A stretch of 64,000 nucleotides of DNA from Nannocystales bacterium (GTDB lineage: Bacteria > Myxococcota_A > Polyangia > Nannocystales > Nannocystaceae), in the NCBI GenBank assembly GCA_050633305.1, contig JBOEGF010000007.1, positions 96,001 to 160,000 on the forward strand, read 5' to 3'. The translations under genes and the position numbers were made by a program. Of this stretch, positions 10,847 through 17,873 are shown piece by piece. The stretch's first letter is position 1. Each line of letters starts with the position of its first letter. The notes under the pieces were generated by a model. That model worked only from the letters and a program-made list of their open reading frames with translations, did no database searches and was not told the origin of the DNA.

Positions 10847-10925
10847 ACCACCGGGGGTCGTGTTTTCGGGCCCGTGCGGGGCGACGTGGTGAGGTCCGGA
10901 GATGTGCTCTAAACTTCGCGAGCTG

Positions 10926-13900
10926 ATGACGACACGTGGCCGACCGATCCGAAAGCTGATGTGCGCCAACCGGGGGGAGATCGCGATTCGCGTCTTCCGA
11001 GCCGCAACCGAGCTGGGGATCCGGACCGTCGCCATCTTCAGCAACGAAGACCGCGTTCACCTTCACCGCTACAAAGCGGATGAGGCCTACCTCGTGGGCA
11101 AAGGGGGGTCGCCCGTCGGGGCGTACCTCGCGATCGACGACATCATTCGGGTCGCGCTGGAGAACGACGTCGATGCGATTCACCCCGGCTACGGGTTCCT
11201 CTCCGAGCGCGCCGACTTTGCTCGTGCATGCGAGGAGGCTGGCATCGCGTTCGTGGGTCCTCCTGCGGAGATCCTCGAGCGACTCGGCGACAAGACGGCG
11301 GGTCGCGCACTCGCGATCGAGAACGGGGTCCCGGTCATCCCCGGTACCGCCGACCCCGTCGCGGACTTCGACGAAGCGAAGGCGTTTGCGGAGCAGGCCG
11401 GCTATCCGCTGATGATCAAGGCCGCCAAAGGCGGAGGCGGTCGCGGCATGCGGGTGGTTCGCAAGGAGAGCGAACTCGCCGACGCTCTGGAGCGTGCGAG
11501 CTCCGAAGCTGCCAGCGCGTTTGGGGACGGGACCTGCTTCATCGAGAAGTACGTCGAGCGTCCCAGGCATATCGAGGTGCAGATTCTCGGCGACGCGAGA
11601 GGCGAGATTCTCCACTTGTTCGAGCGGGACTGTTCGGTCCAGCGCCGCCATCAAAAGGTCGTCGAGATCGCACCCAGTGTGGGGATCGGCGATGCGTTGC
11701 GGGACCGAATCACCGCCGACGCGGTCAAGCTGGCCAAGGCCGTTGGGTACCGCAACGCGGGCACCTTCGAGTTCCTCGTCGGTCCCGATGATGCTCATTA
11801 CTTCATCGAGGCCAACCCCCGGGTTCAGGTCGAGCACACCGTGACCGAGCAGGTCACCATGGTCGACATCGTTCAGTCTCAGATCCGCATCGCGGGTGGG
11901 GCCAGCTTCGAAGACCTCGGTTTGCGGCAAGAGGACATCACCGTCCGCGGGTTTGCGATCCAGGCTCGGATTACCACCGAGGACCCACTGTTGCAGTTTC
12001 AGCCCGACACCGGGCGCATCGAGGTGTTCCGCCCCGGGAGCGGCTTCGGCATCCGACTCGATGCCGGCAACGGGTACGACGGGGCCACGATCTCGCCGCA
12101 CTACGACTCGCTGCTCGTGAAGGTGACCAGTACCGCTTCCACCTTCGAAGGCGCGGCGCAGAAGTTGTTCCGCTCGCTGGCCGAGTTCCGCGTCCGCGGG
12201 GTGAAGACCAACATCCCGTTCATCCAAAACGTCCTCACCCATCCGCGCTTTCTCGCGGGCAACGTCGACACCGAGTTCATCGCCTCCACGCCCAAGTTGT
12301 TCCGCTTTCCGCGCCGCAGGAACCGGGCGCAGCGACTGCTTTCGTACCTGGGCAATGTGATCGTCAACGGGCCGTCCACGCCCTGGGTCTCCGGTGTCGC
12401 GCCGGCCAAGGTCGAGCCCGAGGTTCCGCCTGCTCCACTCGAGCCTCCCACGAAAGGCTGGCGGCAGGTCTTCTTGGATGACGGCCCCGAGGCGTTCGCG
12501 AAGGCGATTCGCGGCCACCAAGGGCTGCTCATCATGGACACCACGTGGCGGGACGCGCACCAGTCCTTGCTGGCGACGCGGGTCCGAACCATGGACATCG
12601 CCAAGGTCGCGCCGTTGACCAGCCACGTGCTGTCCTCCGCGTACAGCCTGGAGATGTGGGGGGGGGCCACGTTTGATGTGGCGCTGAGGTTCTTGCGTGA
12701 GTGTCCGTGGGACCGACTCGAGCACCTTCGTGAGCTCGTTCCAAACATCCCGTTCCAGATGCTGCTCCGCGGAGCAAACGCAGTCGGATACACGAACTAT
12801 CCGGACAACGTCGTTCGGCGATTCGTGCAGACCGCCCGCGACCTGGGAATCGACGTCTTCCGAATCTTCGACTGCCTCAACTACATCGAGAACCTCAAGC
12901 TGGGCATCGACGCCGTTGGGGAAGCGGGTGGCATCATCGAGGCGTCCGTCTGCTACACGGGCGACGTCAGCAACGCCGATCGCACGAAGTACAGCCTTCA
13001 GTACTACGTCGACGTGGCCGGCCAACTCGTCGAGCGCGGGACCCACGTGCTCTCGATCAAGGACATGGCCGGGCTGCTCAAGCCCAAAGCCGCGAAGCAG
13101 CTGGTCGGGGCCCTGCGCGACGCCTTCCCCGAGGTGCCGATTCACGTGCACACCCACGATACCGCGGCCGCCGGGGTGGCCTCGATGCTCGCCTGCGCGG
13201 AGGCGGGGGCGGATGTCGTCGACACGGCACTGGAAGCGATGGCCGGGCTGACGTCCCAACCCGCGGTGGGCGCCATCGTTGCCGCCCTTCAAGGGACGCC
13301 GCTCGACACCAACCTCGAGCTGACCGAGCTGCAGGTGCTCTCCGACTACTGGGAGCAGGCTCGCCGCATGTACGCCCCGTTCGAGTCTGGACTCAAGAGC
13401 GGGAGCGCCGACGTCTACCTTCACGAGATGCCCGGCGGCCAATACACGAACCTCCAGTTCCAGGCCAACCAGCTCGGTTTGGCGGAGCGTTGGCCGGCCA
13501 TCAAGCGTGCCTACGCTTCCGCCAACCGGTTGCTCGGCGACATCATCAAGGTGACGCCCTCGTCCAAGGTCGTCGGTGACCTCGCCCAGTTCATGGTCCA
13601 AAACGACCTCACCGAAGAGGATGTGCTCGAGCAGGCCGACACGCTGAGCTTTCCGTCCTCGCTGGTCGAGTTCTTCCAGGGCATGCTTGGCCAACCGTTT
13701 GGTGGCTTCCCCGAGATCTTGCGGGAGAAGGTTGTCCGCGGCGCGCAGACCTTCGACGGACGGCCCGGGGCCAGCCTCCCGGCACTCGATTTCGACGCGC
13801 TTCGCAAAGAACTGCGAGAGGAGCATGGCCCGCACATCCGCGAGGTGGACGTGATCAGTGCCGCGCTCTACCCGAAGGTCTGGCGGGAATACCAAGGCTT

Positions 13901-14390
13901 TCGGGAGCGCTTCGCAGACGTCGCTGTGTTGCCCACGCGGGCTTTCCTGGCACCGCTCGAGGTCGGTGAGGAAATCTCGGTGGAGATCGAGCGCGGCAAG
14001 ACGCTGGTGATCGAGCTCGATGCGGTCGGGGAACTCGACGACGATGGCAACCGGACGGTCTACTTTCAGCTCAACGGTCGCCCTCGCTCGATTCACGTCC
14101 CCGACGAGGCCGCCAAGACCGAGGTGGTCGTCCGAAACCGGGCCGACCCCAGCGACCCTGGCTCGGTCGGGGCACCCATGCCTGGGGTGGTGCTCGAAGT
14201 TCGCACCGAGTCCGGCGCGAAGGTGGACGTCGGTGCGCCGCTGGTCGTCCTCAGCGCGATGAAGATGGAGACGGTCGTGGCCTCACCCGTCGCAGGTACG
14301 ATCAAGCGCATCGAGGTTGTCGAGGGAGATTCGCTCGCGGCCGGGGACCTGCTGGTCCACATCGAGACCGCGAAGCAGGCAGAGGCCTAG
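10926..14390 (+). CDS. pyc: Pyruvate carboxylase
   Basis: ANRGEIA, HPGYGFLSE, RDCSVQRRHQK, RDAHQSL, WGGATFD, HVHTHD, SAMKM biotin site. Confidence 0.97.
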   Translation: MTTRGRPIRKLMCANRGEIAIRVFRAATELGIRTVAIFSNEDRVHLHRYKADEAYLVGKGGSPVGAYLAIDDIIRVALENDVDAIHPGYGFLSERADFARACEEAGIAFVGPPAEILERLGDKTAGRALAIENGVPVIPGTADPVADFDEAKAFAEQAGYPLMIKAAKGGGGRGMRVVRKESELADALERASSEAASAFGDGTCFIEKYVERPRHIEVQILGDARGEILHLFERDCSVQRRHQKVVEIAPSVGIGDALRDRITADAVKLAKAVGYRNAGTFEFLVGPDDAHYFIEANPRVQVEHTVTEQVTMVDIVQSQIRIAGGASFEDLGLRQEDITVRGFAIQARITTEDPLLQFQPDTGRIEVFRPGSGFGIRLDAGNGYDGATISPHYDSLLVKVTSTASTFEGAAQKLFRSLAEFRVRGVKTNIPFIQNVLTHPRFLAGNVDTEFIASTPKLFRFPRRRNRAQRLLSYLGNVIVNGPSTPWVSGVAPAKVEPEVPPAPLEPPTKGWRQVFLDDGPEAFAKAIRGHQGLLIMDTTWRDAHQSLLATRVRTMDIAKVAPLTSHVLSSAYSLEMWGGATFDVALRFLRECPWDRLEHLRELVPNIPFQMLLRGANAVGYTNYPDNVVRRFVQTARDLGIDVFRIFDCLNYIENLKLGIDAVGEAGGIIEASVCYTGDVSNADRTKYSLQYYVDVAGQLVERGTHVLSIKDMAGLLKPKAAKQLVGALRDAFPEVPIHVHTHDTAAAGVASMLACAEAGADVVDTALEAMAGLTSQPAVGAIVAALQGTPLDTNLELTELQVLSDYWEQARRMYAPFESGLKSGSADVYLHEMPGGQYTNLQFQANQLGLAERWPAIKRAYASANRLLGDIIKVTPSSKVVGDLAQFMVQNDLTEEDVLEQADTLSFPSSLVEFFQGMLGQPFGGFPEILREKVVRGAQTFDGRPGASLPALDFDALRKELREEHGPHIREVDVISAALYPKVWREYQGFRERFADVAVLPTRAFLAPLEVGEEISVEIERGKTLVIELDAVGELDDDGNRTVYFQLNGRPRSIHVPDEAAKTEVVVRNRADPSDPGSVGAPMPGVVLEVRTESGAKVDVGAPLVVLSAMKMETVVASPVAGTIKRIEVVEGDSLAAGDLLVHIETAKQAEA

Positions 14391-15193
14391 GCCTCTGCGC
14401 CCAGGAGGACGCCGCGCTCGGCCAGGTCCGCGAGCAGGGTGGCGGCCGTCCCCAGGCGTTCATCATCCAGGGGCTCGCCCAGGGTGCCGCACGCTGCTCG
14501 CAGTCCCTCTGCGACCGGCTGCTGGCGTTCAATCAGCTGTTCGAGGACGGCGTGGGCAAGCGGCGTGAGCTCCAGGTAGCGGACCTTGTTGCTCGAGTCG
14601 CGATACACGAGCAACCGGGTGGGGGCGCATTCGGGCTCGTCGCGGTTGTCGGTGTCCTGGGATATCTTGTGCACCGCGTAGGCGTAGGACATCAGCCGAG
14701 CCGCACCGTCGAAACGCAAGGGCTTGTCGAGTGCGAGCTCGCGGCCGGTCGGGGATTCGCCCCCGCGGTGGTCGTTGAGAATGTCGTACTCGAGCAGCTC
14801 GTGGCGGGCCAAGTCGATGAGGTAGTCGGGGACGCTTGGGTCTGCGGCCCAGCGGGGAGCAGCCCACGCGACGAACTCTGCGGGCACGTCTCGGAGGTAC
14901 GGAGAGTGGGCTGCGACCTCTTCCATCCAGTCCCCGAAGTCGGCCTTGAGGCGGTGCATGCCAAGACGGGCCGCGGCGCGCTGGATGAAGTCGCGGATCG
15001 TGTTCCGCATCCGGTTGTGCACCAGGGTGCGGTAGACGAGGAACCGCTCCGCGCCGACCGCTTCGATCGCGTCGAGGTCGTCGCCCTCGATGCCGTGTGC
15101 GGCGGCGAAGGCTCGCAGGTCCTCCCGGCTGGCCTCGGCGGCACCCTTCTTTCGCAGGAGTGCGTTCATCCAATCAAGTCGAAGGTCGTTCAC
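14387..15193 (-). CDS. DUF2063-like MNIO partner protein (HvfC/BufC-type)
   Basis: RFLVYRTLV, SPYLRDVPAEF, YLIDLARHE, SYAYAVHKI, LLVYRD; overlaps the DUF692 stop by 4 nt. Confidence 0.85.
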   Translation of the reverse strand: MNDLRLDWMNALLRKKGAAEASREDLRAFAAAHGIEGDDLDAIEAVGAERFLVYRTLVHNRMRNTIRDFIQRAAARLGMHRLKADFGDWMEEVAAHSPYLRDVPAEFVAWAAPRWAADPSVPDYLIDLARHELLEYDILNDHRGGESPTGRELALDKPLRFDGAARLMSYAYAVHKISQDTDNRDEPECAPTRLLVYRDSSNKVRYLELTPLAHAVLEQLIERQQPVAEGLRAACGTLGEPLDDERLGTAATLLADLAERGVLLGAEA

Positions 15194-16047
15194 GCACTTG
15201 CCTCCTGAGCGTGTTTGTCGAGGGCCTTGTCGTAGACGACCTGCAAGGACGCCGCCTCGGCCAAGAGGTCGGCCAACGGGGGAATGTTGGAGTCTCGTTC
15301 GAGCAACACGGGCTTGGGGCCGGTGCGTTCGATGACGTAGGACATCAGATCCCGGACCTCGTCGCGGACGTCGGCACCGTGGGTATCAACCAGCAACGAT
15401 TCGTCCCATGGCTCGTGTCCCGCGATGTGGAGCTGAACCACGCGCTCCAGGGGGATTGTGTCAATCCACGCGTGCGCCTCGAATCCGTGGTTGCTCGCGT
15501 TGACGAACACATTGTTGACATCGAGCAGGAGCCCACAGTCGGCGCGCTCGACCACCTCGGTGATGAACTCAGCCTCGTCCAGGTTGCTCTTGCCCAGCTG
15601 CAGGTACCAGCTGATGTTCTCGACCGCCATGCGTCGCTCGAGCCTGTCGCTGGCCTCGCGAACGCGGGCTGCGACACGCTTGGCGGTCTGCGTGGTGAAC
15701 GGGATCGGAAGAAGGTCGTGCAGCATCGCACCGTCCATCCCGCTCCAGCAGATGTGGTCCGAGTGCCACGGCGCTCCGTATCGATCGAGGAACGACTTGA
15801 GCTCGTCGAAGTACTCGTCGCGAAACGGATCCGTGCCGCCCAGCGACATCATGAGACCGTGGGTGATGATCGGGAAGCGCTCAGCCAGCGTGGCGAGGCG
15901 CTTGGGCGAGCGCCCACCGCGGTGCATGTAGTTCTCGGGCGCGACCTCGAGGAACGCGACCTTGCCGTCGGCGTCACCACGCACGATGTCGCGGAGGAAG
16001 GCGCCGCGAAGACCAAGACCGACGCCGGTGGGGGGTTGGGGCTGCAT
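15190..16047 (-). CDS. DUF692 multinuclear non-heme iron oxidative enzyme (MNIO; MbnB/ChrH/HvfB/BufB family)
   Basis: GVGLGLR, LEVAPENY, THGLMMSLG, HSDHICW, DLLPIP, VENIS, LLLDVNN, QLHIAGH, VDTHG, LLERD. Confidence 0.95.
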   Translation of the reverse strand: MQPQPPTGVGLGLRGAFLRDIVRGDADGKVAFLEVAPENYMHRGGRSPKRLATLAERFPIITHGLMMSLGGTDPFRDEYFDELKSFLDRYGAPWHSDHICWSGMDGAMLHDLLPIPFTTQTAKRVAARVREASDRLERRMAVENISWYLQLGKSNLDEAEFITEVVERADCGLLLDVNNVFVNASNHGFEAHAWIDTIPLERVVQLHIAGHEPWDESLLVDTHGADVRDEVRDLMSYVIERTGPKPVLLERDSNIPPLADLLAEAASLQVVYDKALDKHAQEASA

Positions 16048-16068
16048 GCGAAGACTCTCGAACCGTAC

Positions 16069-16108
16069 AAAGAAAAACCCGCGGCGACCGTGAAGGCCAG
16101 CCGCGGGT
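16069..16108 (-). terminator. Intrinsic terminator/attenuator between precursor and MNIO genes
   Basis: Minus strand acccgcggc...gccgcgggt stem followed by ttttcttt. Confidence 0.7.
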
Positions 16109-16125
16109 CGGTCGCTCAAATGAGC

Positions 16126-16362
16126 TTACTTGGCGCCGCCGCAGGAGGCTTCGCCGCCTTCTTCGGCAGCTTCGCCGCCTTCGGCTTTCTCAGCGCCGCA
16201 GGAGCCTTCAGCTTTGTCGGCGCCACAGGAGCCTTCGGCCGCATCACCAGCAGCGGGAGCTGCGGGGGTCTCGACGGCGGGCTTGTCCTTGTCGCAGCCG
16301 GTCGTGGCGAGAGCGCCGGTGCCGAGGAATGCGAGCGTTGTGGCAATGCTTTTGAGATCCAT
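16126..16362 (-). CDS. 78-aa RiPP precursor, predicted lipoprotein with E[G/A]SCG repeats
   Basis: MDLKSIATTLAFLGTGALATTGC-DKDKP...EGSCGADKAEGSCGAEK...EASCGGAK; purine-rich RBS; directly upstream of DUF692. Confidence 0.88.
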   Translation of the reverse strand: MDLKSIATTLAFLGTGALATTGCDKDKPAVETPAAPAAGDAAEGSCGADKAEGSCGAEKAEGGEAAEEGGEASCGGAK

Positions 16363-16438
16363 GTCGTTTTCCCTTTTCGAGTTCTCTTGGAGAGGTTTTG
16401 GGTCCGTCCGTGGGCCCCGACGTGGGGCTCGAAGGTCA

Positions 16439-16463
16439 ATCGCAGACCCGCCGCAGATGTTAC
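16439..16463 (-). promoter_or_regulatory. Candidate ECF (SigF/EcfF-like) promoter for the RiPP operon
   Basis: GTAACA-N15-CGAT on the minus strand, about 75 nt above the precursor ATG. Confidence 0.4.
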
Positions 16464-16592
16464 GGCCACTTCGGGGGGCCGGATCGACAGAAATCTCCAC
16501 AATTTGGTCATCGATTGCCTGGGCGGACCGTGAACCGCCCGAAAAGGCTGCTGAACCGGGATTCCTGGACATTCGTCGCCCGTCGCGCTGCT

Positions 16593-17873
16593 ATGCCTGC
16601 GATGGGGTCCAAGAGTCGGTCCGCCGGTAGCCGCTTCGCACTTTCGTTGCTGCTGGTCCTGACGATCATCAACTTCCTGAACTACCTCGACCGGTACGTG
16701 CTGAGCGCCGTCCTCGAGGGAATCCGGACCGATCTGGGGTTCGACGACTCTCAGGGAGGATTGCTGGGCAGTGTCTTCATGGTCGTCTACACGATCGCGG
16801 CACCGGTTGGCGGCATCCTCGGAGACCGCTGGAACCGGAACCGGATGGTCGCGATCGGGGTCGGGCTGTGGAGCCTGGCGACGATCGGCAGCGGGATGGC
16901 GGAGAGCTACGGAGGCCTACTGACGATGCGCGCCCTGATCGGGGTGGGGGAGGCGGGCTACGCTACCGTCGCGCCGGCGATCATCGCGGATGTCTTCAGG
17001 CCTTCCGAACGCGGCCGCAAGCTCTCCATCTTCTACCTCGCCATCCCGATGGGGAGCGCGTTGGGCTACTTGCTCGGAGGCGCGGTCGGGGAGGCCTACG
17101 GCTGGCGTGCAGCGTTCTTCGTTGCGGGAACGCCTGGCCTGTTCTTCGCTGTGGTGGCGTTCTTCCTCCCGCATCCCAAGCGGGGGGCGATGGATGAAGG
17201 CGAAGTCGCGGCTGAGCTGCCGCTCGTCGAGGGCGTGAAACGTTTGTTCCGGACCCCGGCGTGGCGCATCAACACGATCGGCATGACGCTGATGACGTTC
17301 TCCATGGGCGGAATCGCCTTCTGGATGCCGACGTACCTCATCCGTGAGCAGGGGATGGATGAGGCCACGGGGAACATGATCTTCGGTGGCATCACGGTCG
17401 TGGCGGGATTGCTCGCGACGATCATCGGCGGAACGCTGGGGGACCGCGCCTTCGCCAAGCGGCAAGGAGGCTACTTCTCCGTCAGTGGCATGGGGTTGCT
17501 GCTGGGGGCACCGTTCGCGCTTGCCATGCCGCTGATGCCCAACACGACCGGCGTGTTCGTCTGCGCCTTCTGTGCGGAGTTTCTGTTGTTCTTGAACACC
17601 GGACCACTCAACGCAGCCTTGGTCGCCTGCGTGCCGTCGTCTCTGCGGGCCCGCTCGATGGCGATCAACGTGTTCTTCATTCACATGCTTGGAGACGCGC
17701 TCTCCCCGACGCTCATCGGGGTGGTGAGTGAAAATCGGGGGCTGTCGTTTGCCGTCGCACTGACTAGCATTCCGATCGCGATCGGAGGGTTCGTCTTGAT
17801 CCGCGGTGCACGCAAGGTCGATGCCCTCGCGGATGGCATCGGGACGGTCGATCCCGAACCCGCTAACCGGTAA
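16593..17873 (+). CDS. MFS transporter, spinster-like
   Basis: INFLNYLDRY, GILGDRWNR, RALIGVGEA, AIPMGSALGY, HMLGDALSP. Confidence 0.9.
   Translation: MPAMGSKSRSAGSRFALSLLLVLTIINFLNYLDRYVLSAVLEGIRTDLGFDDSQGGLLGSVFMVVYTIAAPVGGILGDRWNRNRMVAIGVGLWSLATIGSGMAESYGGLLTMRALIGVGEAGYATVAPAIIADVFRPSERGRKLSIFYLAIPMGSALGYLLGGAVGEAYGWRAAFFVAGTPGLFFAVVAFFLPHPKRGAMDEGEVAAELPLVEGVKRLFRTPAWRINTIGMTLMTFSMGGIAFWMPTYLIREQGMDEATGNMIFGGITVVAGLLATIIGGTLGDRAFAKRQGGYFSVSGMGLLLGAPFALAMPLMPNTTGVFVCAFCAEFLLFLNTGPLNAALVACVPSSLRARSMAINVFFIHMLGDALSPTLIGVVSENRGLSFAVALTSIPIAIGGFVLIRGARKVDALADGIGTVDPEPANR

Follow-up and report, generated by a model that had tools for sequence, protein, structure and literature searches.

A conserved operon of Nannocystaceae predicted to encode a lipid-anchored, MNIO-modified cysteine-repeat peptide

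The window analysed here is a 64,000-nucleotide stretch (positions 96,001 to 160,000, forward strand, of contig JBOEGF010000007.1, assembly GCA_050633305.1) from a Nannocystales bacterium. It contains an operon, on the minus strand, that encodes a small cysteine-repeat precursor, an MNIO (DUF692) enzyme and a DUF2063-type partner, and that probably directs the synthesis of a membrane-held peptide that is made on the ribosome and modified after translation (a RiPP). A sequence-only reading of this DNA had described the three genes as co-oriented, with the last two overlapping, and they are located as claimed, with an overlap of 4 bases. The features of the operon are:

16362-16126, minus strand: precursor gene, 78 amino acids (aa), with a predicted lipoprotein signal (Cys23), an Ala/Pro linker and cores at Cys46, Cys55 and Cys74
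16047-15190, minus strand: MNIO (DUF692) maturase gene, 285 aa, PF05114
15193-14387, minus strand: PME1-type partner gene (DUF2063 + NGO1945_C), 268 aa, GTG start
16064..16125, minus strand: terminator-like hairpin with U-rich tail in the precursor/MNIO gap, judged by folding energy against shuffles
16438..16463, minus strand: candidate extracytoplasmic function (ECF) promoter P2, GTAAC-N-CGATT, resembling the ECF16/SigF box
16459..16486, minus strand: candidate ECF promoter P1, CGATCC-N16-CGTAAC, overlapping P2

The precursor has a hydrophobic N-terminus ending in TTG-C23, then the linker and the cores EGSCG, EGSCG and EASCGG, as first described, with cysteines at positions 23, 46, 55 and 74; the core cysteines are 9 and 19 residues apart, and the predicted mature part contains 13 Asp/Glu against 5 Lys. 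The six-frame translation of the genome, 22.0 million residues, contains the motif E[GA]SCG 35 times, and a rough, after-the-fact estimate of the probability that three fall within 78 residues by chance is 3e-13. There is no EGKCG motif in this precursor and no Pfam or NCBIfam model matches it, NF050137 (HvfA) included; 9 of 27 precursor relatives match NF050137 weakly (best E 0.0018). The MNIO scores 326 bits against PF05114 (cut-off 25) and its best solved relative is 3BWW (E 9e-62). His98, Glu143, Asp176, Asn179, His207, Asp221, His223 and Glu250 are invariant in 55/55 aligned homologues and agree with 3BWW, TglH and MbnB; we take these residues to be the iron ligands. Asp252, the counterpart of the FonB catalytic base, is kept in 120/121 cases. 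The GTG start of the partner gene, which overlaps the MNIO stop, is preceded by AGGAGG, and its product matches DUF2063 (29 bits, cut-off 27.2) and NGO1945_C (62.9 bits, cut-off 27) and falls below the HvfC equivalog (123 bits, cut-off 142); phmmer found no solved relative of it.

Comparison of 40 related genomes gave 16 best orthologous loci, 57-93% identical. At 15/16 of these loci the gene directly upstream of the MNIO encodes a lipobox precursor with ExxC cores, an association on which the sequence-only reading had staked its proposal, and the partner is likewise present at 15/16, one locus ending at a contig edge. The closest named enzyme homologues carry the labels Nannocystaceae, Myxococcales, Myxococcota or Deltaproteobacteria, and among cultured organisms close homologues occur in Paraliomyxa miuraensis (69%), which also has a His-type precursor, and in Nannocystis sp. 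(64%); judged from these names, the precursor/MNIO/partner trio is conserved within the Nannocystaceae. In 251 genomes sampled across the wider phylum, the precursor profile matched five at E 1e-5: two belong to the same family, one, next to an MNIO, is a relative of Polyangia type, and two gave no recognisable precursor. The operon is flanked, on the opposite strand, by genes for a pyruvate carboxylase and an MFS transporter, so that no DoxX or sigma factor gene is adjacent, as had been noted; the single DoxX match in the genome sits on a different contig. The pyruvate carboxylase gene (10902-14390, plus strand) is tail-to-tail with the partner gene and overlaps it by 4 bases, and the divergent MFS transporter gene (16599-17873, plus strand) is kept beside the operon in several relatives, seen there as antisense frames.

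A profile search returned 341 precursor homologues, and motifs, lipoboxes and charge were counted in the best 120. These contain 490 motif windows, with Ser before the core Cys in 398, His in 50 and Lys in 21. The homologues have a median net charge of -12, and a lipobox pattern surrounds the first Cys in 113 of them, the remaining 7 having a longer start call or AMGC. The number of repeats varies from 2 to 6 across the precursor relatives, with the signal and its Cys constant, and Cys23 is invariant in 27/27 aligned sequences. Cleavage of the modified peptide by signal peptidase I or a protease would instead yield a soluble periplasmic captophorin. TTG-C does depart from the textbook box, L-[AST]-[GA]-C (PMC3222651). 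However, the Cys after the hydrophobic stretch never varies, relatives have the textbook lipoboxes LTAC, LAGC and LSGC, and signal-peptide-type precursors have no lipobox-like Cys, their first Cys being a core Cys in 27/29, all of which makes release in soluble form very improbable.

Hybrids of RiPPs and lipoproteins have been named DAG-RiPPs and include subsets of the bufferins and oxazolins with signal peptidase II signals (PMC13056109). Lipo-NedABC of Neisseria dentiae has, like the operon described here, a lipoprotein signal, three ExxCG repeats, an MNIO with its partner and the same predicted route (PMC13056109). NedA, which has three EGKCG motifs, becomes triacylated and, with NedBC, is 12 Da lighter (PMC13056109), so there is experimental precedent for an enzyme that spares the lipobox Cys. 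The window differs from lipo-NedABC in its E[G/A]SCG rather than EGKCG cores, its acidic tail, its myxobacterial host and its separate enzyme clade. The sequence-only reading had proposed a lipo-RiPP variant, and the idea of an MNIO-modified, lipid-anchored, probable metal buffer fits the evidence; the novelty that it implied does not survive, as lipo-NedABC rules out lipidation as a new feature (PMC13056109). The oxazolin (HvfABC), fontiphorin (FonABC) and gonophorin systems share with the window the MNIO, a PME1, an exported precursor with five-residue Cys repeats and the catalytic Asp (PMC11252979, PMC12452194), and 5-thiooxazole is found in all three (bioRxiv 10.1101/2025.11.18.689057). 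Unlike them, the window has a lipobox and not a signal peptidase I signal, no DoxX and no Lys-Cys, its cores are spaced and not in tandem pairs, its enzyme is without Arg16 and Phe250 equivalents, and its proteins fall under the HvfB, HvfC and HvfA model cut-offs. The Caulobacter vibrioides bufferins Buf1 and Buf2 have the same enzyme/partner architecture and a similar promoter box (bioRxiv 10.1101/2024.03.18.585515; PMC3511200), and Buf2 also is without DoxX (bioRxiv 10.1101/2024.03.18.585515), but the window precursor is unrelated to DUF2282 (Buf1) or BufA2 and its enzyme lies outside the bufferin-side group of the tree. Unlike in the Caulobacter system, sigF-nrsF was not found in the genome; DUF2282 was also not found there, and a separate BufA2-like locus is on contig C32. 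That MNIOs of this kind act on EGKCG repeats had been presented as established for both oxazolin and the Caulobacter bufferins. This holds for oxazolin, but EGKCG repeats are a feature of oxazolin and fontiphorin, whereas the precursors of the Caulobacter bufferins are DUF2282 and 6/12-Cys proteins (PMC12452194).

The features of captophorins and DAG-RiPPs that can be looked for in sequence are all present, namely PF05114 with its metal-site residues and Asp, an adjacent DUF2063 PME1, an adjacent Cys-rich exported precursor and, as predicted by pattern and conservation, a signal peptidase II signal with the lipobox Cys ahead of the core. The proteins fail the strict HvfA/HvfB (EGKCG) and bufferin family tests and so are considered a separate variant. 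Among the papers listed by full-text searches, none was on this myxobacterial, EGSCG-type variant, although supplementary tables may list such precursors. What is new is modest: an enzyme clade of its own, stand-alone precursors and a conserved pair of ECF-type promoter motifs. The sequence-only reading had overlooked these motifs, the paralogous stand-alone precursors and the residues by which the enzyme clade differs.

That reading had also regarded Ser in place of Lys as distinguishing, and this does not stand. When species genomes were scanned at the DNA level for spaced repeats of E[GA][S/T/R]C, at least 119 stretches matched, and an MNIO match was located near 47 among the matches listed, an undercount as 39 stretches are shorter than 1 kb. 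E[GA]SC[GS] is present in 45 of these 47 listed stretches, 31 with the Ser motif and EGKCG mixed in one peptide and 14 with Ser only. The listed Ser-type matches are mostly from Gammaproteobacteria (Pseudomonas, Alcanivorax, Lysobacter, Wenzhouxiangella and others) and have ordinary signal peptides. Ser-for-Lys, common in gammaproteobacterial precursors among the matches listed, is therefore ruled out as a novelty, and FonBC is not fixed to Lys: at position 3 of the motif it tolerates Ala, Arg and Thr and is hindered by Phe and Glu, and after the Cys it prefers a small residue and rejects a charged one (bioRxiv 10.1101/2025.11.18.689057).

In a FastTree tree of 51 enzymes, from which the long-branch sequences L005, L036 and L210 and 18 others, mostly close relatives, were omitted, the Nannocystaceae-type enzymes fall into a single group (19 rows, Shimodaira-Hasegawa (SH)-like support 99). 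The signal-peptide-type enzymes (18 rows, support 99) and a bufferin-side group (7 rows, support 98; two rows, L033 and L034, have untyped precursors) form the others, and a branch with support 92 separates the Nannocystaceae-type and signal-peptide-type enzymes from the bufferin side. A quick tree of 72 rows had the same grouping. Sequence identity of the Nannocystaceae-type enzymes is 40-47% with the signal-peptide-type group and 32-45% with the bufferin-side group. In FonB, Arg15, Arg16 and Phe250 are the selectivity residues and Asp249 is the base (bioRxiv 10.1101/2025.11.18.689057); this numbering was transferred via 3BWW and relatives and not by comparison with the FonB sequence itself, so that the mapping is inferred. 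By this mapping, the first Arg (Arg15) and the catalytic Asp are retained in the Nannocystaceae-type clade.

A clade this divergent might install a different Cys modification, for example an oxazolone-thioamide or a Ser cross-link, and its separation in the tree, the two active-site-facing residues that differ and the prevalence of Ser at position 3 (398/490 motifs) could be read in this way. Nevertheless, FonB variants R15A, R16A, F250A and F250D still yield the 305-nm product (bioRxiv 10.1101/2025.11.18.689057), bufferin enzymes vary at the same sites and make the same ring, and Ser is equally common with enzymes that keep the Phe (110/203, in a pattern-selected set), so that different chemistry is improbable. 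The loss of the Phe is not explained by Ser, as Ser-only precursors co-occur with Phe-keeping enzymes. It would suit the His-Cys motifs of the Nannocystaceae family, as His is at position 3 in 50/490 motifs versus 1/203 in the pattern-selected Phe-keeping set; FonB F250D gained activity on Phe at this position (bioRxiv 10.1101/2025.11.18.689057), and this gain on an aromatic residue fits the use of His in a clade without the Phe. A sister MNIO subgroup of the family (L025, L026, L027, L082 and further rows) lies within open frames of ~570-850 codons, possibly fusions or opposite-strand artefacts, and a basic tail carrying EAACG-EGTCG closes its precursors.

The hairpin between the precursor and MNIO genes has a folding energy of -33.3 kcal/mol (z -5.4) and none of 200 shuffles was equally stable; a consensus terminator scan did not call it. 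It would favour the precursor transcript over the enzyme transcript. P1 and P2 overlap and lie 75-126 bases upstream of clustered precursors; a sigma-70 scan found no promoter. P1 is present at 10/19 clustered loci and, across five genomes, has 13 matches, 5 of them at this operon, versus 0 for a reversed control. P2, as the loose pattern GTAAC-N15-17-CGA, is present at 12/19 clustered loci and its CGA is invariant in 11/11 aligned upstream regions. Neither motif precedes the ten His-type stand-alone precursors. P2 resembles the ECF16 box of Bradyrhizobium (PMC3420878) and the Caulobacter SigF box, GTAACC-N16-CGAA, which drives DUF2282-DUF692-DUF2063 operons (PMC3511200). The P2 of the window matches the SigF box at 5/6 and 3/4 positions with a 15-base spacer. 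The genome has at least 150 matches to ECF-type sigma factors, 214 by a local profile. In three genomes (C18:676258, plus strand; L226; L232), P1 also stands before the gene for a conserved lipoprotein of ~365 aa that weakly matches a polysaccharide lyase, possibly a second member of the regulon.

The product is probably a captophorin-type copper buffer, triacylated, bearing 5-thiooxazoles and held at the membrane. What is directly observed is the three genes with the families they belong to, the conservation of the set and the invariance of Cys23, and the route from them, through modification, export, triacylation, copper binding and induction, is modelled on characterised relatives. In the cytoplasm, the enzyme pair would remove 4 Da at each of Cys46, Cys55 and Cys74, forming 5-thiooxazoles, and would spare Cys23, as proposed here, because a charged Asp follows it and there is no Glu at position 1 of the motif. 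Sec export and processing by Lgt, LspA and Lnt would then triacylate Cys23, and the acidic, probably unfolded tail would bind excess copper at the membrane. An ECF sigma factor encoded elsewhere would induce the operon under metal or envelope stress, with the internal hairpin keeping the precursor in excess of the enzyme. Every characterised MNIO-PME1 system installs 5-thiooxazole and the products generally bind copper (bioRxiv 10.1101/2025.11.18.689057), so that the combination of MNIO, PME1 and Cys-repeat precursor supports a 5-thiooxazole copper buffer. Lipo-NedABC provides experimental precedent for the whole route, and further support comes from EGKCG motifs in paralogues in the same genome, from the likeness of P2 to the SigF box of the Caulobacter DUF692 operons, and from the tolerance of FonBC for small residues at position 3 and its block by a charged residue after the Cys. 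Which membrane would hold the mature protein is less readily predicted, as Asp at +2 results in inner-membrane retention in E. coli, Myxococcus uses other signals (PMC3222651), and the +2 residue varies among the precursor homologues.

Several observations weigh against this reading. The MNIO is under both NCBIfam equivalog cut-offs (HvfB 308/360 bits, BufB 300/310). The equivalents of FonB Arg16 (0/22 versus 29/29) and Phe250 (0/23 versus 26/29) are absent from the Nannocystaceae-type clade and usual in signal-peptide-type enzymes, and turnover is reduced in FonB R16A (bioRxiv 10.1101/2025.11.18.689057). Ser at position 3 is not among the FonA variants in the available text, and the minimal FonBC substrate has two adjacent repeats, versus the 9- and 19-residue spacing here (bioRxiv 10.1101/2025.11.18.689057). 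The charged-residue rule cannot explain the sparing of the lipobox Cys family-wide, as the next residue in the best 120 homologues is Gly in 50, Asp in 30, Glu in 14, Asn in 10 and Lys in 9. No copper gene is conserved next to the operon, no cognate sigma factor could be assigned among the 214 candidates, none being convincingly autoregulated, and NrsF was not found in the 92%-complete genome; these last two results also count against a link to SigF.

Four further relatives of the precursor are encoded in the genome:

C14:247408-247674, plus strand: stand-alone paralogue, 88-aa acidic lipoprotein, core DHPADGHCG (His before Cys)
C10:789469, minus strand: stand-alone paralogue, 118-aa Lys/Asp-rich lipoprotein with EMACG, EGKCG and AGGCG
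C63:67786, minus strand: precursor-domain fusion, 174-aa lipoprotein with cores EHSCG/EHACG and EGACG and a C-terminal, weakly GOLD-like domain
C62 (L002 5960-6509), minus strand: frameshifted paralogue with EASCG and EGKCG repeats, a pseudogene or assembly error

No MNIO match was found beside the precursors on C14, C62 and C10, where it was searched for, and none is evident in the open reading frames around that on C63. The C14 paralogue lies opposite a vWA gene in 8/9 orthologous regions. Only in this genome (0/9 orthologous regions, two of which end at a contig edge) does it also lie ~0.9 kb downstream of the trio MbnP, haem protein and MbnH, and a link to MbnP/MbnH was therefore rejected. 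The C10 paralogue is upstream of a murE-like gene, with GTAAC 35 bases ahead of its start. The C63 fusion, also found in three other genomes (L077, L078, L055), has the same signal and linker as the window precursor and a W-[DN]-V-H-S-H motif in its C-terminal domain. The C62 paralogue is between merA/merTP/merR and a block of DmeF CDF and CusA/CzcA RND genes.

This last location is one of several observations that would suit a product with the same chemistry and lipid anchor that handles a different metal (Zn, Cd, Hg or Ag), or acts in oxidative or envelope stress, and does not buffer copper. The strongly acidic tail, with the family median net charge of -12, the 50/490 motifs with His at position 3 and the P1 before the polysaccharide-lyase-like lipoprotein gene are consistent with this, as is the response of SigF to chromate and cadmium (PMC3511200). 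We consider it unlikely, given that characterised MNIO-PME1 products generally bind copper (bioRxiv 10.1101/2025.11.18.689057), that bufferin operons are induced by copper and not by Fe, Zn or Mn (bioRxiv 10.1101/2024.03.18.585515) and, although conserved in none of the nine orthologous regions, that the C14 paralogue is near the MbnP/MbnH copper pair.

The other MNIOs of the genome are 26-46% identical to that in the window, and upstream of each of the two closest lies a different precursor of its own; the simplest reading is that the window enzyme may act in trans on the stand-alone precursors. Extending this, we tentatively suggest, as a possibility that is itself rather doubtful, that the Nannocystaceae clade lost the Arg16/Phe250 gate and that its enzyme became the one maturase, genome-wide, for several lipoproteins encoded at other loci: an acidic one with His immediately ahead of the Cys, a basic one with EGKCG, and one in which the cores are joined to a folded, GOLD-like domain. 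A second MNIO type is found beside lipoprotein-like precursors with T-A-G-C-P repeats (C11:91765-93000, L003; C38:115700-117900, L006; L032), one of the precursors, at C38, being fused to a further domain; the analysis matched this type to no described family. On C32 (L004 4710-7370), a BufA2-like lipoprotein precursor scoring 50.7 bits (cut-off 60) is accompanied by an MNIO and partner of its own, encoded on the opposite strand.

A specialist would expect a variant of this type, and its presence is of little surprise. It would extend the lipid-anchored thiooxazole metallophores to the myxobacteria, and it provides a natural enzyme without both proposed selectivity residues, with which the choice of cysteines and the sparing of the lipobox Cys can be tested on natural substrates. 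If there is a genome-wide maturase, several envelope lipoproteins would acquire metal sites made of thiooxazole, of which some would have a further His ligand and a different metal selectivity.

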